Source of the DNA: Rhodospirillaceae bacterium
GTDB lineage: Bacteria > Pseudomonadota > Alphaproteobacteria > Rhodospirillales > Rhodospirillaceae
Length of the DNA stretch: 64,000 nucleotides
Direction of reading: 5' to 3'
Assembly: GCA_033764265.1 (NCBI GenBank)
Contig: JANRJB010000112.1
Location: 764 to 64,763 of the forward strand
Shown: positions 23,015-59,867 of the stretch, in pieces
How the letters are laid out: every line of letters begins with the position of its first letter
Position numbering within the stretch: the stretch's first letter is position 1
Translations under genes and position numbers: made by a program
Notes under the pieces: model-generated
The model's input: only the letters and a program-made list of their open reading frames with translations
Database searches by the model: none
Told to the model about the DNA's origin: nothing

Positions 23015-23085
23015 GGCGGGGCGTCCTCCAGCCGCGTCAGCCTACGCAAACAAGACCCCGCCGAAAAGCAGGTTATCGATCGCGG

Positions 23086-23898: not shown

Positions 23899-23900
23899 GC

Positions 23901-24734: not shown

Positions 24735-24754
24735 GTCGAAACCCCGCAAGAGAA

Positions 24755-24784
24755 AACCGGCGACAGGGTGGCCCGTCGCCGGTT
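24755..24784 (-). terminator. Rho-independent terminator candidate after tandem copy 2
   Basis: 10-bp perfect stem AACCGGCGAC / GTCGCCGGTT. On the minus strand it is followed by TTCTCTT. Located 32 nt downstream of the 24816 stop. Confidence 0.5.
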
Positions 24785-24815
24785 TCAATTCAACTCTCAA
24801 CGCGAACGCGCTGCA

Positions 24816-25652
24816 TCAGTTCGCGGGCTTCTGATACAGGTGGGTGAAGCGGTCGCTTTCACCGATGGCCGCGTACTTTTCACGGTTGACGTCCTTCTCG
24901 CGGAAGTTCGGCGGCAGGGTCCACACGCCGCCCGGATAGTCCTTGGTGTCTTTCGGATTGGCGTTGATCTCGGATTTGGCGACCAGCTTGAAACCGGCCT
25001 TTTCGGCCAAAGCCTGGGCGTAGTCCTCGCGCACGTAGCCGCTCGCGGCCTTGGGATCCTGCTCCTTGTCGGTGTTGGCGCGATGCTCGACCACGCCCAA
25101 GTAGCCGCCCGGCTTCAGACTGTCGTAGAACACCTTGAACATTTGGTCTTGGGTGCCCTGCGCCATCCAGTTGTGGATGTTGCGGAAGGTCAGCACCATG
25201 TCGGCGGTGCCGGGGGCGATCGGAGTGAGCTTGCCGGTGCGCGCCGAAAGTTCGCCCACCACCGCGTTGCCATAGATCTCAGGTCGCTCGGCCAGCTTGG
25301 CCTTAAACCCATCGACCTGTTTCTTGGCGCCTTCCGAGGCGGCCGGATCCAGATGGCCGGCGACGTACTTGCCGTTCTGGTTGAGCAGCGGCGCCAGGAT
25401 TTCGGTGTACCAGCCGCCCGACGGGCCGATCTCCAGCACCGTCATGTCGTGGCGCACGCCGAAGAATTTCAAGGTCTCGAGCGGGTTGCGGTATTTGTCG
25501 CGGGCCTTGTTCTCGGGGCTACGATGGTCGCCGTCCAGGATGACCTTCAGCTTGGCTTCGGTGCCGGCATCCATCTCGGCCATGGCCGCCATCGGCCAAG
25601 CCACCAGGGCGGCCAGTGCGCAGGCTTTTACCGCCGTCAGTACGGTCGTCAT
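24816..25652 (-). CDS. Class I SAM-methyltransferase-fold protein with Sec signal peptide (tandem copy 2)
   Basis: MTTVLTAVKACALAALVAWPMAAMAE signal. Motifs VLEIGPSGGWYTE, VLTFRNIHNW, LKPGGYLGVVEH. Confidence 0.8.
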   Translation of the reverse strand: MTTVLTAVKACALAALVAWPMAAMAEMDAGTEAKLKVILDGDHRSPENKARDKYRNPLETLKFFGVRHDMTVLEIGPSGGWYTEILAPLLNQNGKYVAGHLDPAASEGAKKQVDGFKAKLAERPEIYGNAVVGELSARTGKLTPIAPGTADMVLTFRNIHNWMAQGTQDQMFKVFYDSLKPGGYLGVVEHRANTDKEQDPKAASGYVREDYAQALAEKAGFKLVAKSEINANPKDTKDYPGGVWTLPPNFREKDVNREKYAAIGESDRFTHLYQKPAN

Positions 25653-25730
25653 GTGTCAGTCTCCTTTGCATGGGTCAGTTGCGGGCCAACGACGGCGTCT
25701 TGCGTCGCCGGTCCGTCGTCGTCGCGTCGG

Positions 25731-26567
25731 TCAGTTGGCCGGCTTCTGATACAGGTGCGTGAAGCGGTCGCTCTCCCCGATGGCAGTGTATTTGGCCTTG
25801 TCGACCTCGCCCTCGCGGTATGTGGGCGGCAAGGTCCACACGCCCTTCGGATAGTCCTTGGTGTCCTTCGGATTGGCGTTGACCTCGGACTTGGCCACCA
25901 GTACGAAGCCGGCTTTCTTCGCCAGTTCCTCGGCGAAATCCTCGCGGACGTAGCCGTTCGCGGCCTTGGGGTCCTGCGGCTGGTCGGTCTTGGCGCGGTG
26001 CTCCACCACGCCCAGGTAACCGCCCGGCTTCAGGCTGTCGTAAAACACTTTGTACAAAGCGTCCTGGGTGTTTTGACTCATCCAGTTATGGATGTTGCGG
26101 AAAGTCAGCACCATGTCGACCGACCCCGGCGGCACCGGCTGCATCTTGTTGGTGCCGGGGAACAGCACGGCCACCTCGACCTTCGCGAGGTCGGGGTGCT
26201 TGCCCAGCATCTCCTTGTAGCCGGCGACGGCCTTTTTCATGAACTCGCTGGGCGCCTCGGGGTCCCAGTGGGCGGCGATGTACTTGCCCTTGTCCTTGAG
26301 CACCGGGGCCAGCACTTCAGTGTACCAGCCGCCGCTCGGCCAGATTTCCATGACCGCCATGGTGTCCTTCAGGCCGAAGAACTTCAGCGTTTCCATCGGA
26401 TGGCGGTGTGCGTCGCGGGCCTTGTTGGCCTCGGAGCGGATCGGGCTGGCAAGCGCAGCCTTCAGCTTGGCCTCGGTGCCGGCGTCCATCTCGGCCTTGG
26501 CCGGCATCGCAATCGCCATGGTGACCGCAAGGGCCCCGACGACGGTTCGTCCCAAACGCATGTGCAT
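25731..26567 (-). CDS. Class I SAM-methyltransferase-fold protein with Sec signal peptide (tandem copy 3)
   Basis: Start MHMRLGRTVVGALAVTMAIAMPAKAE (CAT 26565-26567) preceded by GGGAGG. Same motif set as copies 1 and 2. The rest of track ORF 25731..26861 is leader. Confidence 0.8.
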   Translation of the reverse strand: MHMRLGRTVVGALAVTMAIAMPAKAEMDAGTEAKLKAALASPIRSEANKARDAHRHPMETLKFFGLKDTMAVMEIWPSGGWYTEVLAPVLKDKGKYIAAHWDPEAPSEFMKKAVAGYKEMLGKHPDLAKVEVAVLFPGTNKMQPVPPGSVDMVLTFRNIHNWMSQNTQDALYKVFYDSLKPGGYLGVVEHRAKTDQPQDPKAANGYVREDFAEELAKKAGFVLVAKSEVNANPKDTKDYPKGVWTLPPTYREGEVDKAKYTAIGESDRFTHLYQKPAN

Positions 26568-26881
26568 GGTGGTGTGTCCTCCCTGAGTGGCGACGCGCGC
26601 CCGAACTTCCGGCGGCTTCGCGTCGCGGCATGGTGGCGCCCCGTCGCGCCGCGCCGAGTCGTACAACGAAATAGGGACTTCACAAAGCGGAACAACCCGA
26701 AACACCCGCAATCTCACGGGTTCGTCATTTTGGCTTGAGTGGGCGGATTGGCCCGCAAAGTCGCGCTGTAGCCATGTGGCCGGCGCATGGCCGGCCGCTT
26801 GATCTTGTCCCCCGCCGCCATACATGGCGCACACTGCACGTTCGATGCTCGAACGCCCCACACCCGTTGAAGGGACCCGCC

Positions 26882-31749: not shown

Positions 31750-31899
31750 GGGCAGGGCTCGGGCGGGGGTGGTTTCAGCCCAACCTAGCGCCCGGTGATC
31801 GGCGTGCAAGCCTTTGGGTGCCGCTCACAATTTCTTAATCCGGCGCCCCTAGCCTAGCCTGGACATTCGTGTCTCAGCGATTTGCAACGGATAAGCGTC

Positions 31900-33198
31900 A
31901 TGCGCGTCGTCGCGTTCGTGCCGGCCAAGGGCGAAAGCAGCCGGATCGCCAACAAGAACACCGTTGTGCTCGACGGCGAGCACCTGTTCAAGCGCAAGCT
32001 GCGCCAGCTGCTGGAATGCCCTGAGATCGACGAGGTCTACCTCGACACCGAAAGCGAGCGGATGATCGAGCTGGCCGCCGACCTGCCGGTCAAAGTGCTG
32101 AAGCGCGACCCCAAGCTGGCGTCCAACCGCACCGACGGCCACGAGCTGTTCGCCAACCAGGCCCGCCAGGTCAAGGCCGACATCTACATCCAAAGCCTGT
32201 GTACCAGCCCGTTCATCACCGCCGACACAATTAGCCGCGCGATGAAAGCGTTGATGAAGAAGCCGGGCGCGGACTCGCTGGTCGCGGTGCAGCGGAGAAA
32301 GCTCTACACCTGGAGCAGGGGCCGGCCCGACTACGGCCAGGGCCGCATTCCCAATTCGGTCGACCTGCCGCACACCATCATCGAGTCCATGGGGCTTTAC
32401 ATGGTGCGCCGGCAAAAAGGCGAAGGCGCGCCGACGCACCGGTTCGGGGCCAAGCCGATCCTGTTCGAGATCACCGACGAGGAAGCCGTCGACGTCAACT
32501 GGCCCGAGGACCTGGCGCTGGCCGAGCGCATCTGCGCCGGCCACCGCGCCGTGCACAACGCCGCGCTCGACGCCATCCGCCCGCACCTGTGCGCTTCTCT
32601 GCTCGCCGACATCTGCAAGGAACGCGGGCTAAAAGCCGTGCTGCCGCCAGGGTTCGTGCGGGTCAGCGGGCGCAGCGTGCTGGGCGTGGCCAAGACGCTG
32701 GAGCTGCGCCGGCTGAAGAAGGGCGACGACTGGAAGGGCATCTACACCGCGCTGGGCAGCTACAACTTCATCCGCCCGGGCGACGTGATCGTGGTTCAGA
32801 ACCACGTCAAGGACAAAGCCTACTTCGGCGATCTGAACGCCAACATCGCCGTGCGTTCGGGCGCGGTCGGCGCGGTGGTCGATAGTTACACCCGCGATTC
32901 CGCCGAGCTGAACGGGCTGGAGTTTTCTGTCTTCGCCCGCGGCATCAACTGCGACGACATTAAGTACGAAGGAACCGTTCACGCCATGAACAAGCCGGTC
33001 ACCATTGGCGAAGTGGTGGTCAACAACGGCGACTACATCTACGCCGACGACGACGGCGTGCTGGCGATCCCCAAGGCGCTGTGGCCGTCGATCCGTGACG
33101 AGGCTCTGGCCACCCTCAAGAAGGAATTCGACATCCGCTACGCCATCATGCGCGGCGAGGACGTAGCGAAAGTCCTCAATCTCCATGGGGCGTTTTAG
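31900..33198 (+). CDS. Fusion protein: N-terminal acylneuraminate/CMP-sugar cytidylyltransferase domain + C-terminal RraA / class II (HMG/CHA-type) aldolase domain
   Basis: MRVVAFVPAKGESSRIANKN (CTP_transf_3 P-loop-like motif) at the N-terminus. PGDVIVVQNH...GDLNANIAVRSGAVGAVVDSYTRDSAEL...VFARG...DYIYADDDGVLAIP is the RraA-family pattern. Single uninterrupted ORF. Confidence 0.8.
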   Translation: MRVVAFVPAKGESSRIANKNTVVLDGEHLFKRKLRQLLECPEIDEVYLDTESERMIELAADLPVKVLKRDPKLASNRTDGHELFANQARQVKADIYIQSLCTSPFITADTISRAMKALMKKPGADSLVAVQRRKLYTWSRGRPDYGQGRIPNSVDLPHTIIESMGLYMVRRQKGEGAPTHRFGAKPILFEITDEEAVDVNWPEDLALAERICAGHRAVHNAALDAIRPHLCASLLADICKERGLKAVLPPGFVRVSGRSVLGVAKTLELRRLKKGDDWKGIYTALGSYNFIRPGDVIVVQNHVKDKAYFGDLNANIAVRSGAVGAVVDSYTRDSAELNGLEFSVFARGINCDDIKYEGTVHAMNKPVTIGEVVVNNGDYIYADDDGVLAIPKALWPSIRDEALATLKKEFDIRYAIMRGEDVAKVLNLHGAF

Positions 33199-33320: not shown

Positions 33321-34730
33321 ATGGCGTTCGACGAGATGTACAGCGCCGACGGCGGCATCCGCCCGCCGTACCAGGGCATCGCCCGTTGGCTGGCCGGCAC
33401 CTCGCCCGACACGCTGCAGGCGCGCACCACGGAAGCAGAGCTGCTCTATCGCCGCGGCGGGATCACCTTCGCAGTGTACGGCGACGCCGAGGGCGAGGAA
33501 CGCATCATTCCGCACGACATCGTCCCCCGCGTGCTGGCGCGTGCGGAGTGGGACCTGCTGGCCCGGGGGCTGGAACAGCGCGTGCGCACGCTGAACCGTT
33601 ACCTGAACGACATTTACGGCCCCGGCGAGTGCCTGAAGGCGGGCGTCGTGCCCGAGGAACTGGTCTGGCAGAATCCGGCCTTTCGACCCGAAATGGTCGG
33701 CGTGCCGGTGCCGCACGGCATCTACGTGCACATCGCCGGCATCGACGTGGTGCGCATCGACCCCGAGACCTTCTACGTGCTCGAGGACAACGCGCGCACG
33801 CCGTCGGGCGTATCGTACATGTTGCACAGCCGCGAGGTGTCGATGCGGCTGGTGCCCGAACTGGTGGCCGATCATCGCATCGCCCCGATCGAGAACTATC
33901 CCGAACAGCTGCTGGCGGCTTTGAAGTCGGTCGCCCCGCGCCGCGCCGCACAGGACCCCACCGTGGTGCTGCTGACGCCCGGCCAGTTCAACTCGGCCTA
34001 CTACGAGCATTCGTTCCTGGCCGACAAGATGGGCGTGGAGCTGGTCGAGGGCCGCGATCTGTTCGTGCGCGACGCCAACGTCTACATGCGCACCACGCTG
34101 GGGCCCAAGCGCGTTGACGTGATCTACCGGCGAATCGACGACGACTTCATCGACCCGCTCACCTTCCGCCCGGATTCCATCCTCGGGCTGCCGGGCCTGT
34201 TCGCCTGCGCGGCGGCCGGCAACGTCGCACTCGCCAACGCCGTCGGCACCGGCGCGGCCGACGACAAGGTGATCTACTCCTACATCCCCGAACTGATGAA
34301 GTTCTATTTCGGCGAGACGCCGATCCTGCACAACGTGCCGACCTGGCGCTGCCGGTACGCCGACGACCTGGCCTACGTGCTCGACCACCTGCACAAGCTG
34401 GTGGTGAAGGAGGTTCACGGTTCCGGCGGCTACGGAATGTTGGTCGGCCCACACGCCTCGTCGCACCAGATCGAGGAATTCCGCGCCCGGCTGATCGCCC
34501 ACCCGGACAATTACATTGCCCAGCCCACGCTATCGTTGTCGACCTGCCCGACGTTCGTCGACAGCGGCGTGGCGCCGCGCCACGTCGACCTGCGACCGTT
34601 CGTGCTGTCGGGCGCCGACGGCGTGCGGGTGGTGCCCGGCGGCCTGACGCGGGTGGCCCTGCGCGAAGGCTCGCTGGTGGTGAATTCGAGCCAGGGCGGC
34701 GGCACCAAAGATACTTGGGTGATCGAGTGA
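33321..34730 (+). CDS. Circularly permuted ATP-grasp type 2 protein (DUF404/DUF407)
   Basis: 469 aa. PSGVSYMLHSR, VLLTPG..NSAYYEHSFLA and VVKEVHGSGGYGM blocks are typical of the family. First gene of the Anbu operon. Confidence 0.8.
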   Translation: MAFDEMYSADGGIRPPYQGIARWLAGTSPDTLQARTTEAELLYRRGGITFAVYGDAEGEERIIPHDIVPRVLARAEWDLLARGLEQRVRTLNRYLNDIYGPGECLKAGVVPEELVWQNPAFRPEMVGVPVPHGIYVHIAGIDVVRIDPETFYVLEDNARTPSGVSYMLHSREVSMRLVPELVADHRIAPIENYPEQLLAALKSVAPRRAAQDPTVVLLTPGQFNSAYYEHSFLADKMGVELVEGRDLFVRDANVYMRTTLGPKRVDVIYRRIDDDFIDPLTFRPDSILGLPGLFACAAAGNVALANAVGTGAADDKVIYSYIPELMKFYFGETPILHNVPTWRCRYADDLAYVLDHLHKLVVKEVHGSGGYGMLVGPHASSHQIEEFRARLIAHPDNYIAQPTLSLSTCPTFVDSGVAPRHVDLRPFVLSGADGVRVVPGGLTRVALREGSLVVNSSQGGGTKDTWVIE

Positions 34731-34749
34731 CGGATGATCGCGTGACGAG

Positions 34750-35691
34750 ATGCTGAGCCGCACCGCCGACAGCCTGTACTGGCTTGCGCGTTACATCGAG
34801 CGCGCCGACTACCTCGCCCGCATCCTCGACGCGGCGACGCGGCTGGCGGCGCTGCCGGGCGCCAGCGCACACGGCGTCAACGAGTGGGAGAGCGCGCTGG
34901 CCTCGGCCGGCTGCCTGGCGGCGTTCCGCAGCCGCTACGCCGAGGCCAACGCCGCCACTGCCACCGCGTTTGTGGCCTTCGCAGAGGACAACCCATCGTC
35001 GATCCGCCAGTGCCTCGAAACCGCGCGTTTTAATGCCCGCGCCGTGCGCACCGCCATTACCTCGCAGATGTGGGAGACCATCAACGGCGCGTGGCTCGAC
35101 CTGCATGCCACCGACGTCGGCGCGCTTGCGCCCAGCGACCACACCCAGTTTCTCGACTGGGTCAAGGATGTCTCGCTGCGCTTTGACGGTTCGGCCTATC
35201 GCACCATGTTGCGCGAGGAGAGCTATTGGTTCTACCGCCTGGGGACCTTCATCGAGCGCGCCGACAACACCGCGCGCATCCTCGACGTGAAGTACCACGT
35301 GCTGTTGCCGCAAACCTCGACCGTCGGCGGCGGGCTGGACTATTCCCAGTGGGCGGCGATCCTGCGCTCGGTCAACGCGCTGACCGCCTATCACTGGGTC
35401 TATCGCGACAGTCTGAAGCCGTGGCTGATCGCCGAGTTTCTGCTGCTGAAGCCCGAGATGCCGCGCTCGCTGCGCTCGTGCTATCTCAATCTGGTCGAGG
35501 CGCTCGACCTGTTGGCCCAGCACTCGGGCCGGCAGGGCCCGGCGCAGCGCCGCGCCCGCGCCATCGCGCTCAAGCTGGAGCAGGGGCGCATCGACGATAT
35601 CTTCGCCAGCGGACTGCACGAGTTCGTCCAGACCTTTCTGTCCGACAACAACAGCCTTGGCGCGGCGATCTCCGAGCAATACCTGATCTGA
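34750..35691 (+). CDS. Alpha-E domain protein (DUF403)
   Basis: MLSRTADSLYWLARYIERADYLARILD is the hallmark N-terminus of alpha-E proteins; the repeat FYRLGTFIERADNTARILD occurs mid-protein. Confidence 0.85.
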   Translation: MLSRTADSLYWLARYIERADYLARILDAATRLAALPGASAHGVNEWESALASAGCLAAFRSRYAEANAATATAFVAFAEDNPSSIRQCLETARFNARAVRTAITSQMWETINGAWLDLHATDVGALAPSDHTQFLDWVKDVSLRFDGSAYRTMLREESYWFYRLGTFIERADNTARILDVKYHVLLPQTSTVGGGLDYSQWAAILRSVNALTAYHWVYRDSLKPWLIAEFLLLKPEMPRSLRSCYLNLVEALDLLAQHSGRQGPAQRRARAIALKLEQGRIDDIFASGLHEFVQTFLSDNNSLGAAISEQYLI

Positions 35692-35695
35692 TTCA

Positions 35696-36526
35696 ATGCG
35701 CATCCACATCCGTCACGCCACCACCTACACTTACGACCAGCCGGCCAAGGCGGTGATCCAGCTGTTGCGCCTCACCCCGCGCGCCTGCGAGGGCCAGTCG
35801 GTCCGGCGCTGGCGCATCGATCTCGACGTCGACGGTTCGCTGCGGCAGTCCGAGGACGCCTTCGGCAACGTCACGCACATGTTGTCGCTGGCTGGGCCGA
35901 TCGCCCGGCTGACGGTGGCGGCCGACGGCGAAGTGGAGACGATGGAGACCGACGGTGTCGTACGCGGGGCGGTCGAACGCTTCCCGACCGGGCTGTACTT
36001 GCGTGAGACCGCACTGACGCGGCCGTCGGCGGAGCTGGCCGCGTTCGCGCGCGACGCGACGGCCGGGCGCGGCGACCCCTTGACCGTGTTGCATGCGCTG
36101 ATGCTGGCCGTGCACCGCGCCATCGCCTTCGATACGCGCCCGACCCAAGCAACCACCACGGCCGCCGAGGCCTTCAGGATCGGGTCGGGCGTGTGTCAGG
36201 ACCTGACGCACGTCTTCATCGCCGCGGCGCGCGTGCTCGGCATTCCTGCGCGCTATGTCGGCGGCTACCTGTGGCGCGCCGACGGCGCGCTGCGCCAGGT
36301 GCAGGATGCCGGCCATGCCTGGGCCGAGGCCCATACGCCCAACCTGGGCTGGGTCGGCTTCGATCCGGCCAACGCCATCTGCTCGACCGCCGCGCACGTG
36401 CGCGTTGCGGTCGGGCTGGATTACCTGGGGGCCGCACCGGTCCGCGGCTCGCGCACCGGCGGCCCGGACGAGCGCCTGGACGTGGCGCTGTCGGTGACCC
36501 AGGCCGCCGCCGCGCGTCAGGACTGA
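35696..36526 (+). CDS. Transglutaminase-family protein (Bact_transglu_N + transglutaminase core)
   Basis: GSGVCQDLTHVFIAAARVLGIPARYVGGY (catalytic Cys), HAWAEA (His) and GFDPAN (Asp). Confidence 0.85.
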   Translation: MRIHIRHATTYTYDQPAKAVIQLLRLTPRACEGQSVRRWRIDLDVDGSLRQSEDAFGNVTHMLSLAGPIARLTVAADGEVETMETDGVVRGAVERFPTGLYLRETALTRPSAELAAFARDATAGRGDPLTVLHALMLAVHRAIAFDTRPTQATTTAAEAFRIGSGVCQDLTHVFIAAARVLGIPARYVGGYLWRADGALRQVQDAGHAWAEAHTPNLGWVGFDPANAICSTAAHVRVAVGLDYLGAAPVRGSRTGGPDERLDVALSVTQAAAARQD

Positions 36527-36611
36527 GAATGACCGCCGATGCGCCGGCGCGTGAATTGTGGGTTGCGCGCGCCTCGTCTATAAGCCTGCGGCGGACGCGC
36601 GGAGGGGCCCC

Positions 36612-37358
36612 ATGACCTATTGCGTCGGATTGTTGCTCAAGGACGGCCTGGTGATGATCGCCGACACGCGCACCAACGCGGGCGTCGACAACATCGCTGT
36701 GTTTCGCAAGCTGCACTTGTTCGAAACACCCGGCCAACGCACGTTAGCCCTGTGCAGCGCAGGCAACTTGTCGCACGCGCAGACCGTCGTCAGCCTGTTG
36801 AACGAGGGCATGGAGAATCCCGCCACCGGCAAGGCGCAAACCCTGGCGGGCGCGGCGACCATGCTGGAGGCCGCGCAACTGGTCGGCCGCGCCGTGCGGC
36901 ACGTGTACCAGATCGACGGCGAAGCGCTGGAAAAGCAGAACGGCCGATTCGACGTGTCGTTTCTTCTCGGCGGCCAGATCAAGGACCGTCGCCTTCGCCT
37001 GTTCCTGATTTATGCCGCCGGCAACTTCATCGAGGCCAGCCTGGAAACCCCGTTCCTCCAGATCGGCGAACACAAGTACGGCAAGCCGATCCTTGATCGC
37101 GCCGTCACCTACGACATGGACCTGTACGACGCCCTGAAAATCGGCTTGATCTCGGTGGACTCCACGCTGCGCTCCAACCTCGCGGTCGGGTTGCCGCTCG
37201 ACATCGCGGTTATCCGCCGCGACGCCTTGAAGGCCGAGCTGACCTATCGCGTCGAGGCCGAAGACGCGTATTTCGCCGACCTGCGCCGGCGCTGGTCCGA
37301 GGCATTGCGCGCGACCCACCAAGCGATTCCGCGCCCCCCTTACAAGCCGGCTGGCTGA
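36612..37358 (+). CDS. Anbu (ancestral beta-subunit) proteasome-type peptidase
   Basis: In-frame ATG 36612 gives MTYCVGLLLKDGLVMIADTRTNAG, with Thr2 as the Ntn nucleophile. About 248 aa. Sits in the canonical operon position after the transglutaminase. Confidence 0.85.
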   Translation: MTYCVGLLLKDGLVMIADTRTNAGVDNIAVFRKLHLFETPGQRTLALCSAGNLSHAQTVVSLLNEGMENPATGKAQTLAGAATMLEAAQLVGRAVRHVYQIDGEALEKQNGRFDVSFLLGGQIKDRRLRLFLIYAAGNFIEASLETPFLQIGEHKYGKPILDRAVTYDMDLYDALKIGLISVDSTLRSNLAVGLPLDIAVIRRDALKAELTYRVEAEDAYFADLRRRWSEALRATHQAIPRPPYKPAG

Positions 37359-50701: not shown

Positions 50702-51241
50702 ATGTTTCGTCGGCGCGTCCTGGCGTGGTTGATCGCCGCTCTGGTGTCGGTCCCGGTCGGCGCGCAGGCGCAGGCGCTGAAACCGCACGAACCGCTCAAC
50801 CCGGCCAAGGCGCAATCGTTGCCGCTGACGCCGCTGGTGATCGAGATCGACGGCGCGCGCCACGCGTTTCAGGTCGAACTCGCCGACACCGACGCCACGC
50901 GCACCATCGGCCTGATGCATCGCACCTATCTCGCGCCCGACCGCGGCATGCTGTTCGACTTCAAGCGGACGCGCGACGTGGGCATGTGGATGCGCAACAC
51001 CTTCATCTCGCTCGACATGCTGTTCATCGACCGCGACGGCCGCGTGATCGCGGTCGCCGAGCGCACCAAACCGCACTCGGAACAAAGCATCGGCCCCAAT
51101 CGTCCGGTGTTGGCGGTGCTGGAACTTGCGGCCGGCACCGCGGCCCGCATCGGCCTGAAGCCCGGCGCGATGGTGCGCCATGCGATGTTCGGAACCGACC
51201 CGGGCGCGCCGCTGCCCCCTGCGACGGCCAAACAACCTTAA
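50702..51241 (+). CDS. Secreted DUF192 (COG1430) protein
   Basis: In-frame ATG 50702 gives signal peptide MFRRRVLAWLIAALVSVPVGAQA. GLMHRTYLAPDRGMLFDF...MWMRNTFISLDMLFID is the DUF192 core. Confidence 0.8.
   Translation: MFRRRVLAWLIAALVSVPVGAQAQALKPHEPLNPAKAQSLPLTPLVIEIDGARHAFQVELADTDATRTIGLMHRTYLAPDRGMLFDFKRTRDVGMWMRNTFISLDMLFIDRDGRVIAVAERTKPHSEQSIGPNRPVLAVLELAAGTAARIGLKPGAMVRHAMFGTDPGAPLPPATAKQP
51129..51241 (+). repeat. Direct repeat copy 1 (3' end of the DUF192 gene)
   Basis: 113 nt that recur at 54250-54362. The first 83 nt have 1 mismatch; the last 30 nt have 9 mismatches; no indels. Confidence 0.9.
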
Positions 51242-51623
51242 GGGCTGCGTCGCCAGCGTGCCCGGATGGCCCGCTGCAGTCAGTGGTTTTGAATCTCTGG
51301 CTGTTGCTGATCGTCCCGGTCGGGCGGTCTTGGGGGCTTCCCACACCACCGCCGGGGCCACGATCCACAGTCATCGCCAAGCGAGGGAATTGGCGGTTCC
51401 GGCCCAAGGATAACATTGGCGGCAGCGGGGACTAACCAACCGGTGAAGCGGACCTAGGCTATTGAAAACGTGGCTGCAAACGAGGTGAGAAGCCTTCATT
51501 CAGCAGGGTTTAACAGTCGATTACTGGGCATTTTACCCAAGATTGTTGTCAGACGGACACAGAGTTATGCTGGTGTTCGCGTCCGGGAATCATCCGGGGG
51601 TCGTGGCGCAATGGGGAACATCG

Positions 51624-54104
51624 ATGACGCTTTTGTGCAAGAAACCAGCGCTGATGGTCGCAACCGCGCTGTCAACCGTCCTGATGATGTCCTCCGCGCC
51701 AGTGCTGGCGCAGGAGTCTCAGCAGAAGGCGACGGCTGATCTTCTGGAAGAAATTGTTGTGACTGGCACGCGCCGGATCGACCGGACAGTCGCCGACTCG
51801 CCAGTGCCGATCGATGTTGTCTCAAATGTCGAGCTGCTGAAGTCGGGCTCCGGTGAGGTCAACCGGATCCTCAATCAGCTGGTCCCGTCTTATAATTTCC
51901 CGCAGCCGACGATCACCGACGGCACCGACCACATACGGCCTGCAACGTTGCGTGGTCTCTCGCCCGACCAGACCTTGGTGCTGATCAACGGCAAGCGCCG
52001 CCACCACACTTCGCTCCTCAATCTGAACGGCTCTGTCGGGCGAGGCTCGACCGCAGCTGATTTGAACACAATTCCTGCCGCCTCCATTCAGCGCGTCGAA
52101 ATCCTGCGCGATGGAGCTGCTGCGCAATACGGCTCCGATGCGATTGCCGGCGTCATCAACATCATCCTGAAAAACGCACCCGAAGGCGGTTCGGTCACAG
52201 TTAACTTGGGTACCCATTACGAGGGTGACGGCGATCTTTATCAGGTCGTCGGCAACGCGGGTGTCGGCCTTGGCGACGACGGCTATCTCAATATGTCCGC
52301 CGAATACCGCCATCGTGGGTTCACCAACCGCCAGGGTGCCGACGCCCGGCAGCAATACAACAACTTACCCGGGGGCGTTCCCGATCCCCGCGAGGCGACA
52401 ATCAACCGCACCAGCAACTTCAAGTACGGCGACAGCAAAGTCGAGGACGCCAACATCGTCTATAATCTTGGCATTCCGCTCAGTGGCGAGATCGAACTCT
52501 ATTCCTTCGGCAACTACGGCAAGCGCGAGGGCAAGAGCGGTGCCACCTGGCGCCGCCCGCGCGATATCAACAATGTCCGCGCCATCTACCCCAATGGATT
52601 CCTTCCATTTATCACGTCTGACATCGACGACGCGTCGGTGGCCGTTGGCGTGAAAGGTGGCGATGACTTCCGTTGGGATGTAAGCGCCGTTTACGGCAAC
52701 AACGACTTCCCCTTCGGTGTCGAGAATACGCTCAACGCCACCTATGGTGCGCAAAGCCAGACGTCTTTCGACGCCGGCGACCTGGGTTATGAGCAGTTCG
52801 TCGCCAACGCTGATTTCGGCACCGAGGCCGAGATCGGCTTGCCCGAGCCAGTCAGCATCGCCTTCGGCGCTGAGTGGCGTCATGAGAACTATACAATGGG
52901 CGCCGGCGAGCTGGCGTCATATGCCGACGGCGGGCGCACTTTGCTGACCGAACCCGGTCGCCAAGACGCGACTACGCCGAGCGCGCCGGGCGCTCAGGGT
53001 TTCCCCGGCTTTCGCCCGAGTGATGAGGTTGATGCGAACCGCCACTCGATGTCGGCTTACATCGACCTTGAAACCAATCTGACCGATGCATTCCTGCTGT
53101 CCGTCGCCGGCCGCTTCGAGGATTACTCGGACTTCGGCTCGACCGTATCGGGAAAGGTAGCCGGCAAGCTCGACGTCACCGATAGCTTCGCAATCCGCGG
53201 CGCTCTTTCCAACGGTTTCCGTGCCCCGTCTTTGCAGCAAAGTTTCTTTTCGTCGACAGCGACGAATTTCATCGGGGGCATCCCCTTCGAAGTCCGCACG
53301 TTCCGCGTCAACGACCCAATCGCCAAGCTCCTCGGCGCCGAGGAGCTCGACGCCGAGAAGTCGATCAATATGAGCTTTGGTTTCACGACCCAGCCGATCG
53401 ACGGCCTCAACATCACGGTCGATGCCTATCGAATCGACATCGACGATCGCATCGTCCTTTCGGAAAACTTGACCGGAACGGCAGTGCAGAATTTCCTGAC
53501 CTCGCGCGGGTTTCCGGGTGTGACGGGAGGGCGCTTCTTCACCAACGCGATCGACACCCGCACCGAGGGGATCGACATCGTCGCCAACTACCGCACCGAC
53601 GTGGGCGACGGTAACCTCGGCCTAACATTGGGAGCGAACTTTAACGACAGCGACGTCAAATCGGTGAAGGGCAACCCCTCAACGCTGACGGCGCTTGGCC
53701 TGCAACTCAACCGCTTCGCGCGCGTCGAGGAAGGCCGTTTCACTGTCGCCCAGCCCAAGAACAAGATCAACCTTGGCGTCAATTATGCCATCAGCGCGGT
53801 CGACATCAACTTGCGCGCCAATCGCTATGGCAAGTTCACCTCGCGGAACGCCAATCCGTTGGCCGACCAGACCTTCGGCGCCGAATGGGTTGCCGACATC
53901 GAGGTGGGCTACGACGTCACCGACAACTTCAACCTCGCGGTTGGCGCGAACAACGTGCTTGACCAGTATCCCGATCGAGTTCCGCTGGTGCCGACACCTC
54001 CAGCGGTGACCGCCAACGCCAATGGGTTCGCGCAGTATTCCAACTTCTCGCCATTCGGCTTCAACGGCGGCTTCTACTACGCGCGCGCGACCTACAGCTG
54101 GTAA
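51624..54104 (+). CDS. TonB-dependent outer-membrane receptor
   Basis: In-frame ATG 51624 gives signal MTLLCKKPALMVATALSTVLMMSSAPVLAQE. TonB box/plug region (EEIVVTGTR; LRGLSPDQTLVLINGKRR; RVEILRDGAAAQYGSDAIAGVINIILK) and a terminal aromatic ...YARATYSW. Visibly lower GC than its neighbours. Confidence 0.9.
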   Translation: MTLLCKKPALMVATALSTVLMMSSAPVLAQESQQKATADLLEEIVVTGTRRIDRTVADSPVPIDVVSNVELLKSGSGEVNRILNQLVPSYNFPQPTITDGTDHIRPATLRGLSPDQTLVLINGKRRHHTSLLNLNGSVGRGSTAADLNTIPAASIQRVEILRDGAAAQYGSDAIAGVINIILKNAPEGGSVTVNLGTHYEGDGDLYQVVGNAGVGLGDDGYLNMSAEYRHRGFTNRQGADARQQYNNLPGGVPDPREATINRTSNFKYGDSKVEDANIVYNLGIPLSGEIELYSFGNYGKREGKSGATWRRPRDINNVRAIYPNGFLPFITSDIDDASVAVGVKGGDDFRWDVSAVYGNNDFPFGVENTLNATYGAQSQTSFDAGDLGYEQFVANADFGTEAEIGLPEPVSIAFGAEWRHENYTMGAGELASYADGGRTLLTEPGRQDATTPSAPGAQGFPGFRPSDEVDANRHSMSAYIDLETNLTDAFLLSVAGRFEDYSDFGSTVSGKVAGKLDVTDSFAIRGALSNGFRAPSLQQSFFSSTATNFIGGIPFEVRTFRVNDPIAKLLGAEELDAEKSINMSFGFTTQPIDGLNITVDAYRIDIDDRIVLSENLTGTAVQNFLTSRGFPGVTGGRFFTNAIDTRTEGIDIVANYRTDVGDGNLGLTLGANFNDSDVKSVKGNPSTLTALGLQLNRFARVEEGRFTVAQPKNKINLGVNYAISAVDINLRANRYGKFTSRNANPLADQTFGAEWVADIEVGYDVTDNFNLAVGANNVLDQYPDRVPLVPTPPAVTANANGFAQYSNFSPFGFNGGFYYARATYSW

Positions 54105-54249: not shown

Positions 54250-54362
54250 CGGCCGGCACCGCGGCCCGCATCGGCCTGAAGCCCGGCGCGATGGTGCGCC
54301 ATGCGATGTTCGGGACCGACCCGGGCGCGCCGCCGCCCGCCACGCCTCCGAAACAACCTTAG
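54250..54362 (+). pseudogene. Direct repeat copy 2: orphaned 3' fragment of a DUF192 gene
   Basis: Reads ...AGTAARIGLKPGAMVRHAMFGTDPGAPPPATPPKQP-stop in the same frame as copy 1, but has no upstream coding sequence. Its TAG (54360-54362) overlaps the convergent O-methyltransferase stop. Confidence 0.8.
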
Positions 54363-55021
54363 CGTTTGCGCGCCAGCGTCAGTCCGTCGCCGATCGGCAC
54401 CAGGCTGACGGTCACGCGCTCGTCCTTGGCGATTTTCTCGTTCAGCGCGCGAATGGCTTTGGTGTCTTCTGTTTGATTGGTCGGATCGATCACGCTGCCC
54501 GACCACAGCACGTTGTCGATGGCGATCAGGCCGCCGCGGCGCACCAGGTTCAATGCGCCCTCGTAATAAGCACCGTAATCGTTCTTGTTGGCATCGATGA
54601 AAGCGAAATCGAACGTGCCGGACTGGCCTTCGGCGATCAGCTGTTCGATGGTCGCGGTGGCGGGCGCGAGCCGCAGGTCAATGCGGTCGGCCACGCCCGC
54701 CTTGGCCCAATGCCGCCGGGCGACGGCGGTGAACTCCTCGCTCACGTCCAATGCGATCACGCGGCCCTTTGGCCCCATCGCCTTGGCCGCGCACATCGCC
54801 GAGTAGCCGGTGAACACGCCCACTTCCAGGGTCTTCTGCGCCCCGATCAGTTCCAACAGCAGGATCAGGAACTGGCCCTGCTCGGAGGAAATCTGCATCA
54901 TCGCGCGCGGATGCTTGGCCGTTTCCTCGCGCAAGGCCCGCAAGTCGGCGTCCTCGCGCCCGCCGACACGACGCACGTAGTCGAGCAATTCGGCGCTCAG
55001 GCCCAGCGTTTCACGCGACAT
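54359..55021 (-). CDS. Cation-dependent class I O-methyltransferase (caffeoyl-CoA OMT / Methyltransf_3 family)
   Basis: LEVGVFTGYSA (motif I), FDFAFIDANK and GGLIAIDNVLWSG are typical of family-3 OMTs. Confidence 0.85.
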   Translation of the reverse strand: MSRETLGLSAELLDYVRRVGGREDADLRALREETAKHPRAMMQISSEQGQFLILLLELIGAQKTLEVGVFTGYSAMCAAKAMGPKGRVIALDVSEEFTAVARRHWAKAGVADRIDLRLAPATATIEQLIAEGQSGTFDFAFIDANKNDYGAYYEGALNLVRRGGLIAIDNVLWSGSVIDPTNQTEDTKAIRALNEKIAKDERVTVSLVPIGDGLTLARKR

Positions 55022-55040
55022 TTCAAACCTTTTGACCTAA

Positions 55041-55943
55041 TCAAGCATCCAGGAACGCGCGGATTTCGACGGCCACCCGGTCGGGCGCGACGATGAAACC
55101 GAACATCGGCAGATCGAGCATTTCCACCAGCGATGCGCCGGGGATGACCTTGGCCGCGTCGCGCGTCGGCTGTGTCATCATCTCGTTGAATGCGATCAGC
55201 CGCACCGGCATGGTCAGCTTGGGCAAGGCCGCGCCGGTGTCGTACGTGAACACCGCGTCCGCGCCCCAGGCGCCGTCGGGCCCGGCGCGCATACGGTCGG
55301 CGAAACGCGCCAGCCGGCGTTCGATCGGGCCGGCGTCCTGGCCGTCAAGCACCAGGCGCCTGTACAGGCTGGGCACGTACTCGCGCTCCTCGAAGAACGG
55401 ATAGCCCTTGACGTTCTGAGCGCGCTGCTTGGCGCGTTCCTCGGGTGTGTAATGCGGCACGCCCGACAGCACGATTCGGCGAATCAACGGCGGGCGGCTG
55501 AGGGCTGTCGCCACCGCGACCAACGATCCGGTGTGGAAGCCGAACAGGTCGAGGGTGCCTTTGCCGCCAAGGCCATAACCCAGGTCGGAAAGCGCGTCGG
55601 CAACAGCGCCGCCGTAGTCGTCCATGGTCGGCTTGGCGGGCGGCGCGTCGGAGCCGCCGAAGCCCGGCGTGTCGACGCAATGCACGACGCGATCTGTGGC
55701 CAAGTACGGCACCATCTCGCGGTAGATGTCGCCCGAGGTCGGCGACGGATGAAAGCAGACCAACGGCGGGTGCTTGATCGCGGCGTCGTCCGCAGGGCCG
55801 GCCGAGAAAAAGTGCACCTGCCCGAAGCGGCCGTTGGCATAGTGCCGCCAGTGCTTGATCGGTGCCGGGTCGGCCGCGCGCGCTGCGGCCGGGGCCAGCA
55901 GCGCTGCGGCGAGGATCGTGCGGCGCTCGATCTCGGCGGTCAT
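55041..55943 (-). CDS. Exported alpha/beta-hydrolase-fold protein, non-canonical elbow G-F-H-T-G
   Basis: Tat-like leader MTAEIERRTILAAALLAPAAARAA. VCFHPSPTSG and LFGFHTGSLVA. Paralogue of 55946..56872 and 23086..23898. Confidence 0.75.
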   Translation of the reverse strand: MTAEIERRTILAAALLAPAAARAADPAPIKHWRHYANGRFGQVHFFSAGPADDAAIKHPPLVCFHPSPTSGDIYREMVPYLATDRVVHCVDTPGFGGSDAPPAKPTMDDYGGAVADALSDLGYGLGGKGTLDLFGFHTGSLVAVATALSRPPLIRRIVLSGVPHYTPEERAKQRAQNVKGYPFFEEREYVPSLYRRLVLDGQDAGPIERRLARFADRMRAGPDGAWGADAVFTYDTGAALPKLTMPVRLIAFNEMMTQPTRDAAKVIPGASLVEMLDLPMFGFIVAPDRVAVEIRAFLDA

Positions 55944-55945
55944 GA

Positions 55946-56872
55946 TCAGCCCTGGTCCAGGAACGGCCGCACTACCGCGGCGATGCGCTCGGGGGCGTTA
56001 TGCCAGGCCGCGCCGGTCAGGTCGGTCAGGTCCGCCGTGCCGGCATTGGGCATCAGCTTGGCGGCCTGGCGGGTCGGCTCGGCCAGGGTTTCATTGAGGA
56101 TCGGGCACAACACCGGCTGGTTGACTTTGGGCAAGGCGGCGTCGGCGTCGTAGCGGAACACCGCGTCAAAGCCCCACCACGAATTCGGGCCGGCGCGCAT
56201 GCGCTCGACAAACAGGTCGAATAGGCGCTGCTTGGTTTCGCCGTCGTTTCGATTGAACACTGTGTCCTTGTACAGTTGGCCGACATAGTCGGCGTCGGTG
56301 AAATAAGGCCGCGGCTGGGCGAACTGCTTGCGTTTGGCTTCGCGCTCGCCGGCCGGGTAGTAGGGGATGCCCGGCATCACCAGCCGGCGCACCAGATCGG
56401 GCCGACGGATGGCCAGCTCGACGATGACGTAATTGCCGGTGTGAAAACCCAACCAATCGACCGGACCGAGCCCGTCCGTGCCGTAACCCAGATTGTCCAT
56501 GGCGTCGGCCATCGCATCGGCCAGATCGGCGACATTCGGCTGTTTTTCGGGCGCGTCGGAGCCGCCATAGCCGGGCGTATCGGGGCACATCACCAGCCGA
56601 TCGGCAGCCATCACCATCTGAAATTCGCGGTAGTAATCGCCCGATGCGGGGCTTTGATGCAGGCAAACGAGCGGGATTTTCTCGCTGCCTTCGGGCGCGG
56701 CCGAGACCACGTGGATCTGGCCGTAGCGGCAGTCGGCGTAGTGCCGCCAGCGGGCGATCGCCGGCCTGTCTTGCGCCGTTGCGGCTCGCGTCGCGGCGAA
56801 TGTCGCGGCAACGCCGGTGATGAAAACCGATCGTCGATTCAGTCTTGCGTCGAGAAACATGACCCTCTCCAC
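55946..56872 (-). CDS. Exported alpha/beta-hydrolase-fold protein, non-canonical elbow G-F-H-T-G
   Basis: Tat-like leader ...LNRRSVFITGVAATFAATRAATAQ. VCLHQSPASG and WLGFHTGNYVI. Separated by 2 nt from the next paralogue. Confidence 0.75.
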   Translation of the reverse strand: MERVMFLDARLNRRSVFITGVAATFAATRAATAQDRPAIARWRHYADCRYGQIHVVSAAPEGSEKIPLVCLHQSPASGDYYREFQMVMAADRLVMCPDTPGYGGSDAPEKQPNVADLADAMADAMDNLGYGTDGLGPVDWLGFHTGNYVIVELAIRRPDLVRRLVMPGIPYYPAGEREAKRKQFAQPRPYFTDADYVGQLYKDTVFNRNDGETKQRLFDLFVERMRAGPNSWWGFDAVFRYDADAALPKVNQPVLCPILNETLAEPTRQAAKLMPNAGTADLTDLTGAAWHNAPERIAAVVRPFLDQG

Positions 56873-56928: not shown

Positions 56929-57696
56929 TCACGCCGCGCCCTTGGAAATGGACTCGGGCCGGCCCAGTCGGCCGGCGGCGATCCAGCCTTCGTAGAGGTT
57001 TAGATCGCTTTCCTGGTCCACTTCGCCCCAGGGCTCGCGATTGGGCACCGCGGTGATGGTCTCGCCGGCCGCCAGCAGCCGCCGCAACAGGCCGGTCATG
57101 TCGAGCCGGTCGAGTTCCGCCTCGGGCACCGTGGCCAGCAGGCGCTCGATGGCGCGCCAACCGTCGGGCGTGAATTTCAACAGCCCCATGTACTGCCCGC
57201 GCACCTGGTCGAGCGACTGGGGCCGCCCGCCGATGTCGCCCAGCCGGCCATCGGGATGGGCGGCGAAGGTCTCGGCGTCGGACAGCGGTTCTGCGAACCG
57301 CGCGCGCCAAAGGTCGAGCCAGCCGGCATCATAGGCCACGGCGATGTCGACGTCGGTCCGCATCAGGCTGACCACGATTTCCGGCCCGTAGAAGATGTCG
57401 CTGTAACTCACCAGTACCGGCCCCGCCTTGAGCCAGCGCGCGGCACGGGCCAGCGACCGCACCATGTTGGTCTCGGACCAGCGCGGGTTGTCGAAATAAG
57501 TCAAGCCGTGCCGCCGCAGCATGTCGCCGCGATAGCCGCCGACCACGCCGATCTCGTCGATCCCGGCCCGGTGCAGCGCGCCCAATTGCCAGGCGAGCAA
57601 TGGCTGGCCGCCGAGTTCGACCAGGCATTTGGGGCGGTCCTCGGTCAGCTGCTTGAGGCGGCTGCCGCGACCGGCGGCGAGGATGACGGCTTTCAC
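56929..57696 (-). CDS. LicC-like nucleotidyltransferase (NTP_transf_3; cytidylyltransferase-type)
   Basis: MKAVILAAGRGSRLKQLTEDRPKCLVELGGQPLL is the G-x-G-[ST]-R nucleotide-binding N-terminus of LicC/sugar-phosphate nucleotidyltransferases. Confidence 0.8.
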   Translation of the reverse strand: MKAVILAAGRGSRLKQLTEDRPKCLVELGGQPLLAWQLGALHRAGIDEIGVVGGYRGDMLRRHGLTYFDNPRWSETNMVRSLARAARWLKAGPVLVSYSDIFYGPEIVVSLMRTDVDIAVAYDAGWLDLWRARFAEPLSDAETFAAHPDGRLGDIGGRPQSLDQVRGQYMGLLKFTPDGWRAIERLLATVPEAELDRLDMTGLLRRLLAAGETITAVPNREPWGEVDQESDLNLYEGWIAAGRLGRPESISKGAA

Positions 57697-57706
57697 GCGA
57701 GAGGAC

Positions 57707-58312
57707 TCATGGATGAGGCACGAACAGATCGCGGATCACAGCAAGGTCGGACTCAGCGTACGACGGTTCACGCTCGGGATGCCACATGAGCCCGGTTAAA
57801 TTTTCGCGGTCGTGCTGAAAGCCCTCGACCGACCCATCCTCGGCCACAGCCCGGGGCAAGCAGCCCGGCGGCAATCGATCGACAGCCCAGTCATGATAGC
57901 TGTTGACCTCGGCCGTGCCGCCCGCGAGCTGCACCCGGTGCCGGGTGCCGGCATGGCCTCCGATGCGCCGCAGCGTGCCGCCCAGCAGATGAACCAGCAT
58001 TTGCATCCCCCGGCAAACCCCCAGCACGGGCACGCGATGGGTTCGCGCCCAGGCGACTATCGCCGCTTCCGCGGCATCGCGCTCCGGCGCATTGCCGCCA
58101 TAGGCGGCCAGATCGTTGCCGCCGGTCAGGATCAGTGCATCCGGGCGGCCGTGCGCCAGCAGCGCCACCGCGGACTCGGCGCAATTGGGCACGGGCAGGG
58201 GCAGGGCACCGCAAGCGGCCAGCAGCCCGATCCAACGCTGGTCGAGCGCGTCGCGGCGTTCGCCACGACGTTCGTCGATGTCCACCCGCTGGCTGAGCGC
58301 GACGAGATGCAT
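57707..58312 (-). CDS. Class I glutamine amidotransferase-like / peptidase C26 gamma-glutamyl hydrolase
   Basis: VLGVCRGMQML (nucleophile Cys) and GLMWHPE (His-Glu of the triad); 201 aa. Confidence 0.8.
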   Translation of the reverse strand: MHLVALSQRVDIDERRGERRDALDQRWIGLLAACGALPLPVPNCAESAVALLAHGRPDALILTGGNDLAAYGGNAPERDAAEAAIVAWARTHRVPVLGVCRGMQMLVHLLGGTLRRIGGHAGTRHRVQLAGGTAEVNSYHDWAVDRLPPGCLPRAVAEDGSVEGFQHDRENLTGLMWHPEREPSYAESDLAVIRDLFVPHP

Positions 58313-58339
58313 GACCGCCCGAGCGCGCCCAACCCGCCG

Positions 58340-59128
58340 TCAGCCGGGTTTGCGCGCGCACCACGCCCGGGTGCGATAGGTGACCGACAGCATGTCCAGG
58401 TCCTGGGTCTTGAAATCGACGTAGTCCATGAACGCGGCCCACTTTTCGGGGCCCAGTTGGGTGCGCACGTCGCTGACCGAACGCCACAGGCCCAGGTAAC
58501 GGGCGCGGCTTTGCTCCTCGGTGTGTTGGCCGTCCAGCGTGACGACCTCACCGAAGCCACCGTGGCGGCGCAGCCGGTCGGCCAGGGTCTGGGTGAACGG
58601 CGCATTGCCCGATGAGACCCGCACGAAGCCGGGCTTGAGCTGCGCGATGTGATCCTCGATGTCGCGGAACAGGCCGGTCTCGCCGATCACGCGGGGGTTC
58701 CACAGGGCGGCGAACCAACCGCCGGGCTTCAGCACGCGCAGGAATTCCGCGGTCGCGCGGTCGAAATCGGCCCAGTGGAACGACGAAGCCATGGTGACCA
58801 GATCGACGGACTGATCGGGCAGGCCGGTGTCCTCGGCGCTGCCGTCTCGGATGTCGATGCCGAGGCCGTGGCAGTCCATCACCGCGCAGCGCCGCATGGC
58901 GGCGTTGGGCTCCACGGCGATGACGCGGCCGACGCGGCCGGCCAGCATGCGGGTCCAGATGCCGGTTCCGGCGCCGACGTCGGCGGCGGTCAGCGACCCG
59001 GCCGGCCGGCCGAACAACGCGAGCAGGCTGTCGCGCACGTCGGGGGCGTAGCCCGGGCGATTGGCCGAATACGCCTCGGCCAGCGGCGTAAAATCGCCGG
59101 GGCGGAGTACGGCGGCGGCTTCGGTCAT
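58340..59128 (-). CDS. Class I SAM-dependent methyltransferase (Methyltransf_11-like)
   Basis: ADVGAGTGIWTRMLA (motif I), VIAVEPNAAM and LKPGGWFAAL. Confidence 0.8.
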   Translation of the reverse strand: MTEAAAVLRPGDFTPLAEAYSANRPGYAPDVRDSLLALFGRPAGSLTAADVGAGTGIWTRMLAGRVGRVIAVEPNAAMRRCAVMDCHGLGIDIRDGSAEDTGLPDQSVDLVTMASSFHWADFDRATAEFLRVLKPGGWFAALWNPRVIGETGLFRDIEDHIAQLKPGFVRVSSGNAPFTQTLADRLRRHGGFGEVVTLDGQHTEEQSRARYLGLWRSVSDVRTQLGPEKWAAFMDYVDFKTQDLDMLSVTYRTRAWCARKPG

Positions 59129-59195
59129 GAACGTCCCCTGTCGCGGTCGGCGTCGAGTATAGGAACCCCGGATTGCTTCGCGAAGCCGGAACAGT

Positions 59196-59765
59196 TCAGG
59201 CGAAGAACTTCTCCACGATCAACCGCGCGGCGGCCTCGGGCTTGATGTCGCCATGGTGATCGATGATCAGGTCGGGCTGGATCGGCTCCTCGGCGGCGAA
59301 ATCCAGGCCCGCGACCGGCCCGTCCTTGGCCTCGCCCGGGCCGTAGAGTCCCTTCTGGTTGCGCTGTTTCAGCACCGCCAGCGGCACCCGCAGGTAGATT
59401 TCGACATAGCCCGGGATGTGCGTGCGGTTCCACGCCTGCACCTCGTGAAACATCGAGATGGTGGCGCAGATGACCACGCAGCCCTGTTCGGCCAGTTCGC
59501 GGCACAGCCGGGCGTACCGGTAGGCAAGCTGCCTGCGGCTGTCGGGATCGTAGCGGGCCGGGCCGCCGAAAATGGCCCGCAGACGGTCGCCGTCGAGCAG
59601 GATCGCGGCCATGCCAAGGTCCGCCAGCCGCGTCCGCAGGGCTCCGGCCACGCTCGACTTGCCGGCGCCGGCCAGGCCCGTAATCCAGAAGACCCGCCCG
59701 GCCAACGCCGAATTCACGATTGCCGGTGGCAGCGCTTGCTCCCGTTTGGCCAAGACCGTAAACAC
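59196..59765 (-). CDS. APS-kinase-fold (CysC-like) nucleotide 3'-kinase, divergent
   Basis: P-loop WITGLAGAGKSS and LDGD are present. The canonical CysC segment after LDGD (N.R.GL..DLGFS..DR) is replaced by RLRAIFGGPARYDPDSR. Confidence 0.75.
   Translation of the reverse strand: MFTVLAKREQALPPAIVNSALAGRVFWITGLAGAGKSSVAGALRTRLADLGMAAILLDGDRLRAIFGGPARYDPDSRRQLAYRYARLCRELAEQGCVVICATISMFHEVQAWNRTHIPGYVEIYLRVPLAVLKQRNQKGLYGPGEAKDGPVAGLDFAAEEPIQPDLIIDHHGDIKPEAAARLIVEKFFA

Positions 59766-59790: not shown

Positions 59791-59867
<77 letters not shown>

Follow-up and report, generated by a model that had tools for sequence, protein, structure and literature searches.

In the 64,000-nucleotide stretch analysed here (the window), which makes up most of a 67-kb contig from a Rhodospirillaceae metagenome-assembled genome (MAG; proteins MDX2222362 and MDX2222365), four adjacent genes on the minus strand encode a kinase of the adenosine 5′-phosphosulfate (APS) kinase fold, a methyltransferase, a hydrolase of the class I amidotransferase fold and a nucleotidyltransferase (NTase). 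On balance, we favour the view that this quartet is a vertically inherited derivative of a five-gene cassette, that it is still functional, and that it draws its phosphoglutamine from a kinase whose gene lies elsewhere in the genome. Protein family comparisons and conserved gene linkage make it well supported that the quartet is a true relative of the Cj1415–Cj1418-type phosphoramidate-donor genes. In Campylobacter jejuni, Cj1415–Cj1418 make cytidine diphosphate (CDP)-phosphoramidate 3′-phosphate from glutamine, adenosine triphosphate (ATP) and cytidine triphosphate (CTP), Cj1418 being the L-glutamine kinase, Cj1416 the phosphoglutamine cytidylyltransferase, Cj1417 the gamma-glutamyl-CDP-amidate hydrolase and Cj1415 the cytidine diphosphoramidate kinase (PMC11800397; PMC6429109). 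O-methyl phosphoramidate (MeOPN) has been described as Campylobacter-only, and the glutamine kinase as Campylobacter-specific (PMC6429109, PMC9561416). The host of the window is a free-living (soil/water) alphaproteobacterium, and the window amounts to a natural experiment, in which deletion has removed the committed first enzyme and the downstream enzymes have long been conserved.

Identity of the four genes and their relatives

A sequence-only reading of this DNA had described four minus-strand open reading frames (ORFs) with gaps of 10–67 nt, characteristic motifs and assignable folds, and the ORFs, their translations and Pfam bear this out. The gaps are 67 nt (kinase to methyltransferase), 27 nt (methyltransferase to hydrolase) and 10 nt (hydrolase to NTase). 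The translations contain WITGLAGAGKSS and LDGD followed by RLRAIFGGPARYDPDSR in the kinase, GVCRGMQ and WHPE in the hydrolase, and ILAAGRGSRL in the NTase. A scan for consensus promoters and terminators found no promoters, and fewer terminators than expected from shuffled sequence.

By its family scores, the kinase is a non-CysC P-loop kinase of the PRK05541 subfamily: it passes the NCBIfam model of that subfamily, NF004041 (158.8 bits, cutoff 127), and fails the CysC/apsK model TIGR00455 (98.6 bits, cutoff 138.7). We presume that Cj1415 is itself a PRK05541 member, and the window protein is a putative cytidine diphosphoramidate 3′-kinase like Cj1415. The stretch after LDGD, which had been read as a replacement of the CysC sequence, is the signature of this kinase subfamily, with Arg63 and Arg77 conserved in it. 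All 32 of 32 family-conserved columns (those at least 95% conserved in glutamine-kinase-linked homologues) are retained in the window copy. When the other predicted genes at 1–50.6 kb were surveyed with Pfam, neither CysD nor CysN turned up near the cassette, giving no sulfate-activation context for the kinase.

The best curated family for the hydrolase is NF045546, the gamma-glutamyl-CDP-amidate hydrolase equivalog of Cj1417, which matches over the full length (E 2.6e-32) and far outscores the GuaA and PuuD models. Cys100, His178 and Glu180 are invariant and 42 of 42 conserved columns are kept, consistent with a putative gamma-glutamyl-CDP-amidate hydrolase of the Cj1417 type. The NTase is without a specific curated model; it retains 63 of 63 conserved columns, and its orthologues come after the hydrolase in 162 loci, suggesting a putative CTP:phosphoglutamine cytidylyltransferase like Cj1416. 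Its nearest structure in the PDB is LicC, a match confined to the N-terminal third, the nucleotide-binding part. The methyltransferase belongs to a cassette-specific family with orthologues in 98 loci. In PDB searches, the closest relatives of the cassette proteins were APS kinases of a generic kind, PuuD-like proteins and LicC.

A scan of GTDB (one genome per species, with the hydrolase alignment as query) yielded at least 538 confirmed loci in Alpha- and Gammaproteobacteria, Acidobacteriota, Planctomycetota, spirochaetes and Firmicutes, with no Campylobacter among the best 80; a metagenome scan with the NTase as query yielded at least 571. Among the 166 loci first examined, a glutamine kinase gene lies directly upstream of the hydrolase in 130 and one or two genes away in 13 more, and the remainder, all but one, are contig-edge cases. 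Put another way, of the roughly 146 related loci that are informative, 143 have hydrolase and NTase next to a PPDK_N/PEP-utilizer protein of about 770 amino acids (aa), from a family many of whose members are named ‘glutamine kinase’ by JGI. In Magnetospirillum sp. XM-1 (locus L001), for example, the order is kinase, methyltransferase, a 774-aa PPDK_N/PEP-utilizers protein, hydrolase and NTase; related glutamine kinases score 930–960 bits on NF004508/PRK05849, and the XM-1 protein 930 bits. Compared with such five-gene cassettes (L001, L167), the window is 47–60% identical across all four shared proteins. The same four families are adjacent in more than 140 related loci, which is more than chance would give. 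The core of the MeOPN-donor reading, a relation to Cj1415–Cj1418-type genes, therefore stands: NF045546 is the best family of the hydrolase, the kinase falls in PRK05541, and orthologues of all four genes are linked to a glutamine kinase in nearly all other loci. The extent that the reading gave to the unit does not stand, as discussed below.

The APS-kinase-fold protein is fused to the glutamine kinase in a single ORF in 49–58 of 135 loci (about 40%). The fused ORF is about 970 aa long and combines PF01583, PF01326 and PF00391 (for example L008, L011, L022 and about 50 others; proteins P0200–P0311). Such a fusion places the APS-kinase-fold family in the donor pathway and, in the Rosetta-stone sense, connects the first step with the last. 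Recurrent partners of the cassette include a 460-aa Sulfotransfer_3-like protein (25 loci, among them L003–L006 and L077), a CysQ-like 3′-phosphatase (14 loci) and two other families. The first two are candidates for a phosphoramidate transferase and for recycling of its by-product, in a scheme resembling that of 3′-phosphoadenosine-5′-phosphosulfate (PAPS).

The family also occurs in a different setting. Five Pseudomonas loci (L021, L029, L035, L037 and L050) carry the glutamine kinase–hydrolase–NTase triad within a flagellar region, next to FlgK, flagellin, a DegT-type aminotransferase, and formyltransferase-like and glycerophosphotransferase-like proteins. This neighbourhood suggests a phosphoramidate-type decoration on the flagellin glycan.

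Loss of the glutamine kinase gene and selection after it

As the sequence-only reading had claimed, the window holds no Cj1418-like kinase. No match to a Cj1418-type glutamine kinase was obtained by tblastn in the 64 kb with queries from L001, L003 and 12 further loci, and neither PF01326 nor PF00391 appeared in the Pfam survey; short genes at 60–64 kb were covered by tblastn alone. In L001, L167, L173 and many other loci the PPDK_N/PEP-utilizers gene lies exactly at the position of the methyltransferase–hydrolase spacer of the window.

L167 has a complete cassette (kinase, methyltransferase, glutamine kinase, hydrolase, NTase) at the same chromosomal site as the window. On one flank the two share NDUS4 and tRNA-Pro, and in L167 this tRNA separates NDUS4 from the kinase; on the other they share two alpha/beta-hydrolase-fold (ABH) genes, an O-methyltransferase (OMT) gene, DUF192, a 193-aa protein, and YdbH-like, Dus and DUF1045 genes. 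The order kinase–methyltransferase–hydrolase–NTase without a glutamine kinase was found also in L002 (Logan SRR24236065) and L172 (JGI 3300037465), and the window, L002 and L172 have in common a short spacer of 21–28 nt that starts TGACGGCGG. Since three independent assemblies have the same scar, loss of the glutamine kinase goes back to one ancestral deletion; an assembly artefact was considered and rejected on the ground of this common junction. In the metagenome scan, no further close glutamine-kinase-less relatives were found above 60% NTase identity. Nearest-neighbour identities all lie on a plateau of 53–60%, at which L167 is not resolved as the sister of the glutamine-kinase-less clade, and because this plateau cannot place L167, the deletion argument rests on synteny. 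By that argument, the window arrangement is a clean ancestral loss of one ORF in a small Rhodospirillaceae clade.

All four ORFs are intact in the three glutamine-kinase-less lineages (window, L002 and L172). Among them, synonymous divergence (dS) is 0.4–0.8 and the ratio of nonsynonymous to synonymous divergence (dN/dS) is 0.07–0.27, similar to that of flanking genes: 0.07–0.09 for the NTase, 0.10–0.16 for the kinase, 0.12–0.16 for the methyltransferase and 0.20–0.27 for the hydrolase, the highest among the seven genes compared. Since the scar is common to all three lineages, the selection measured acted after the deletion. Judged from these substitution patterns, the four genes have stayed of use to their carriers since that event, with no glutamine kinase encoded in cis. 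A relative-rate comparison showed no acceleration in the NTase, the hydrolase or the kinase, the methyltransferase being the sole exception: it lies about 0.05–0.10 farther from the outgroups and so evolves faster. Three of its residues (G82A, P152G and N219S) are changed in all three lineages at sites invariant in 71 glutamine-kinase-linked homologues, including that of L167, and the window protein adds Y197T and E199D at sites invariant in the same 71.

Table 1. Features of the cassette and its borders in the window
Feature	Coordinates	Strand	Remarks
Kinase ORF, APS-kinase fold	59196..59765	minus	First gene of cassette; Pfam APS_kinase 4e-27
Methyltransferase ORF, class I S-adenosylmethionine (SAM)-dependent	58340..59128	minus	Pfam Methyltransf_11 2.9e-20
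Methyltransferase/hydrolase spacer, 27 nt	58313..58339	none	Deletion scar; glutamine kinase gene of about 2.3 kb here in relatives
Hydrolase ORF, class I amidotransferase fold	57707..58312	minus	Pfam Peptidase_C26 1.4e-24, GATase 2.8e-16
Nucleotidyltransferase ORF	56929..57696	minus	Pfam NTP_transf_3 5.6e-20
Two alpha/beta-fold paralogues and O-methyltransferase	54359..56872	minus	Co-directional neighbours, judged outside cassette
tRNA-Pro(TGG)	59791..59867	plus	ARAGORN; divergent from cassette, conserved boundary marker

Proposed pathway and competing explanations

By homology to the C. jejuni enzymes, the NTase would couple CTP with N5-phospho-L-glutamine to give CDP-L-glutamine, from which the Cys-His-Glu hydrolase would free glutamate to leave cytidine diphosphoramidate. 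The kinase would then phosphorylate the 3′ position and yield a PAPS-like donor, 3′-phospho-CDP-amidate, and the methyltransferase would supply an O-methyl group at some stage. The phosphoglutamine would most likely be made by a glutamine kinase from some other part of the genome, and the transferase and the acceptor would likewise lie outside the window. That a glutamate-releasing hydrolase has been kept without change speaks for continued formation of a glutamine adduct, and so for a glutamine kinase acting in trans. A second locus would not be without parallel: L064 and L080, one with the methyltransferase and one without it, are both cassette loci of a single Magnetospirillum MAG (VK2_bin-0414), which shows that one genome can hold more than one copy of the cassette.

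Several points weigh against a functional quartet supplied in trans. No glutamine kinase from the accession block of this MAG (MDX222xxxx) occurs in the best 120 of at least 6447 clusters of homologues of the L167 kinase, and supply in trans would be unusual, given that the glutamine kinase is encoded in cis at every other informative locus. The three methyltransferase changes at invariant sites hint at some functional shift. The hydrolase scores 112.5 bits on NF045546, below the curated equivalog cutoff of 250; all 27 of the 27 relatives tested, glutamine-kinase-linked ones included, are also below it (best E 7.7e-36), so that the cutoff is probably simply narrow. Likeness to Cj1415, Cj1416 and Cj1419/Cj1420 was drawn through folds and family assignments, and the environmental family as a whole is assigned by homology alone to a cassette characterised in C. 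jejuni.

Some of the same observations could mean that, after the loss, the quartet was re-purposed for a new entry substrate, another phospho-amide or a phospho-ester that some unrelated enzyme provides, and that it now makes either some other activated phospho-compound or, along a new route, a phosphoramidate donor. Purifying selection over dS 0.4–0.8 in the absence of a cis kinase, the presence of that kinase in cis at all other informative loci, and a methyltransferase that evolves faster and is replaced at three otherwise invariant sites would all fit such a change, and Cj1416 reportedly becomes promiscuous with Mn2+ (Taylor and Raushel 2019). The NTase, the hydrolase and the kinase, however, retain every conserved residue and are not accelerated, which points to unchanged substrates, and a retained glutamate-releasing hydrolase implies a glutamine adduct; we therefore regard re-purposing as unlikely. 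Improbable, in our judgement, is also the stronger statement that the clade has long kept the NTase, the hydrolase, the 3′-kinase and an altered methyltransferase in genomes wholly devoid of a glutamine kinase. If true, it would mean a second route to N-phospho-glutamine or a related phosphorus–nitrogen (P–N) or phosphorus–oxygen precursor, or else a new activated phospho-donor. That the pathway simply stopped at the deletion and the four genes are decaying would account for the absence of the committed first enzyme from the window and for the leading dN/dS of the hydrolase. This is very improbable in view of ORFs intact in three lineages, dN/dS well below 1 and near that of neighbouring housekeeping-type genes, and the retention of catalytic and conserved residues, all the more as the shared scar places the deletion before the split of the three lineages.

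Two further explanations concern what belongs to the unit. The four genes might stand together by chance, the kinase being an ordinary CysC, the methyltransferase a generic one, the hydrolase a PuuD-type amidohydrolase and the NTase a sugar-1-phosphate nucleotidyltransferase, as the NCBI label of the hydrolase (‘gamma-glutamyl-gamma-aminobutyrate hydrolase family’) and the LicC match of the NTase could suggest. Recurrence of the four families with a glutamine kinase across phyla effectively refutes this, the kinase fails the CysC cutoff and PuuD is a distant second for the hydrolase, leaving the explanation barely credible. Conversely, the cassette might form a functional seven-gene unit with the exported alpha/beta-fold pair and the O-methyltransferase downstream, an extension that the sequence-only reading had also suggested. 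By Pfam, the genes at 55946–56872 and 55041–55943 (both minus) are Abhydrolase_1 and that at 54359–55021 (minus) is Methyltransf_3 (2.4e-72). They are co-directional with the cassette across short gaps, the gene order is the same in L002 (with the glutamine-kinase-less cassette) and in L167 (with the complete one), and a hydrolase-fold gene in L007 has its start overlapping the NTase stop as ATGA. In L169 and L171, however, the trio stands at the same chromosomal site beside DUF192 and no cassette lies closer than 10 kb, the trio is missing from every other cassette locus, and the twin-arginine export signals of the ABH proteins sit poorly with the cytoplasmic chemistry of the cassette. We accordingly rejected the trio as unit members on account of its cassette-free occurrence in L169 and L171, and consider a seven-gene unit quite improbable; from the comparison of loci, the two ABH genes and the OMT gene are lineage synteny outside the cassette. 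The unit boundary is thereby corrected, the cassette ending before the ABH/OMT genes, and the quartet fed by a glutamine kinase in trans remains the explanation we prefer.

Surroundings of the cassette and known systems

Just past the kinase, on the opposite strand, lie tRNA-Pro and a tRNA-Arg. The two ABH paralogues, both with twin-arginine signal peptides, belong to a family of 74 proteins (E ≤ 1e-10), in 70 of which the nucleophile elbow is G-x-H-T-G, a His taking the place of the usual Ser, Asp or Cys; in the fluoroacetate-dehalogenase-like protein 7clz an Asp aligns at this position. Positions 51129–51249 and 54250–54370 form a direct repeat of 121 nt (89% identity), a duplicated DUF192 3′ end that brackets 51543–54104. 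Between the repeats is a TonB-dependent receptor gene of lower G+C content (0.60), which looks inserted because OMT and DUF192 are directly convergent in L167. Farther off, and with no evident link to the cassette, are a fusion of a CTP_transf_3 cytidylyltransferase and an RraA-like domain (31882–33198, plus) and a set of CP_ATPgrasp_2, Alpha-E, transglutaminase-like and proteasome-like genes (33321–37358, plus). The region at 22139–26861 (minus) has little or no Pfam signal and encodes proteins of 291 aa, 307 aa (alpha/beta hydrolase), 299 aa, 278 aa (weak Methyltransf_12) and 376 aa. The Pfam survey found no sulfotransferase and no glycan-synthesis, capsule or other polysaccharide genes at 1–50.6 kb, and searches of the window with the cassette-associated families (these, and not Cj1421/Cj1422 sequences, being the queries) found no sulfotransferase-like protein, CysQ-like gene or other cassette-associated accessory family.

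C. jejuni is the only organism in which this type of cassette has been characterised, but database annotation already recognises it in many bacteria from the environment. Because the gene set is so widespread, occurring in hundreds of environmental species, P–N modifications may be commoner than thought and may far exceed what the chemistry literature suggests.

Compared with the C. jejuni MeOPN pathway, the window has the fold set of three of its four enzymes and a SAM methyltransferase, its hydrolase is nearest to the Cj1417 equivalog, its kinase is in a non-CysC subfamily, and orthologous cassettes elsewhere contain the PPDK_N/PEP-utilizers ‘glutamine kinase’. It differs in that there is no glutamine kinase in the 64 kb and no polysaccharide locus or recognisable transferase nearby, in its free-living alphaproteobacterial host, and in the hydrolase score (112 bits against a cutoff of 250). 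The five-gene cassettes of L001 and L167 match the window in the order and orientation of their genes, and L167 matches it in chromosomal site too, whereas in the window a 27-nt spacer replaces the 2.3-kb glutamine kinase ORF and the methyltransferase carries three changes. The PAPS system (CysC, sulfotransferases and the CysQ 3′-phosphatase) differs from the window in that the window kinase falls under the CysC cutoff and no sulfate-activation, sulfotransferase-like or CysQ-like gene is present in the window. The two are alike in the fold of the kinase and in the logic of a 3′-phosphorylated nucleotide donor, and Sulfotransfer_3-like (25 loci) and CysQ-like (14 loci) neighbours are found in other cassette loci. 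A PAPS-like donor would therefore fit, since a sulfotransferase-fold protein and a CysQ-like phosphatase so often accompany the cassette.

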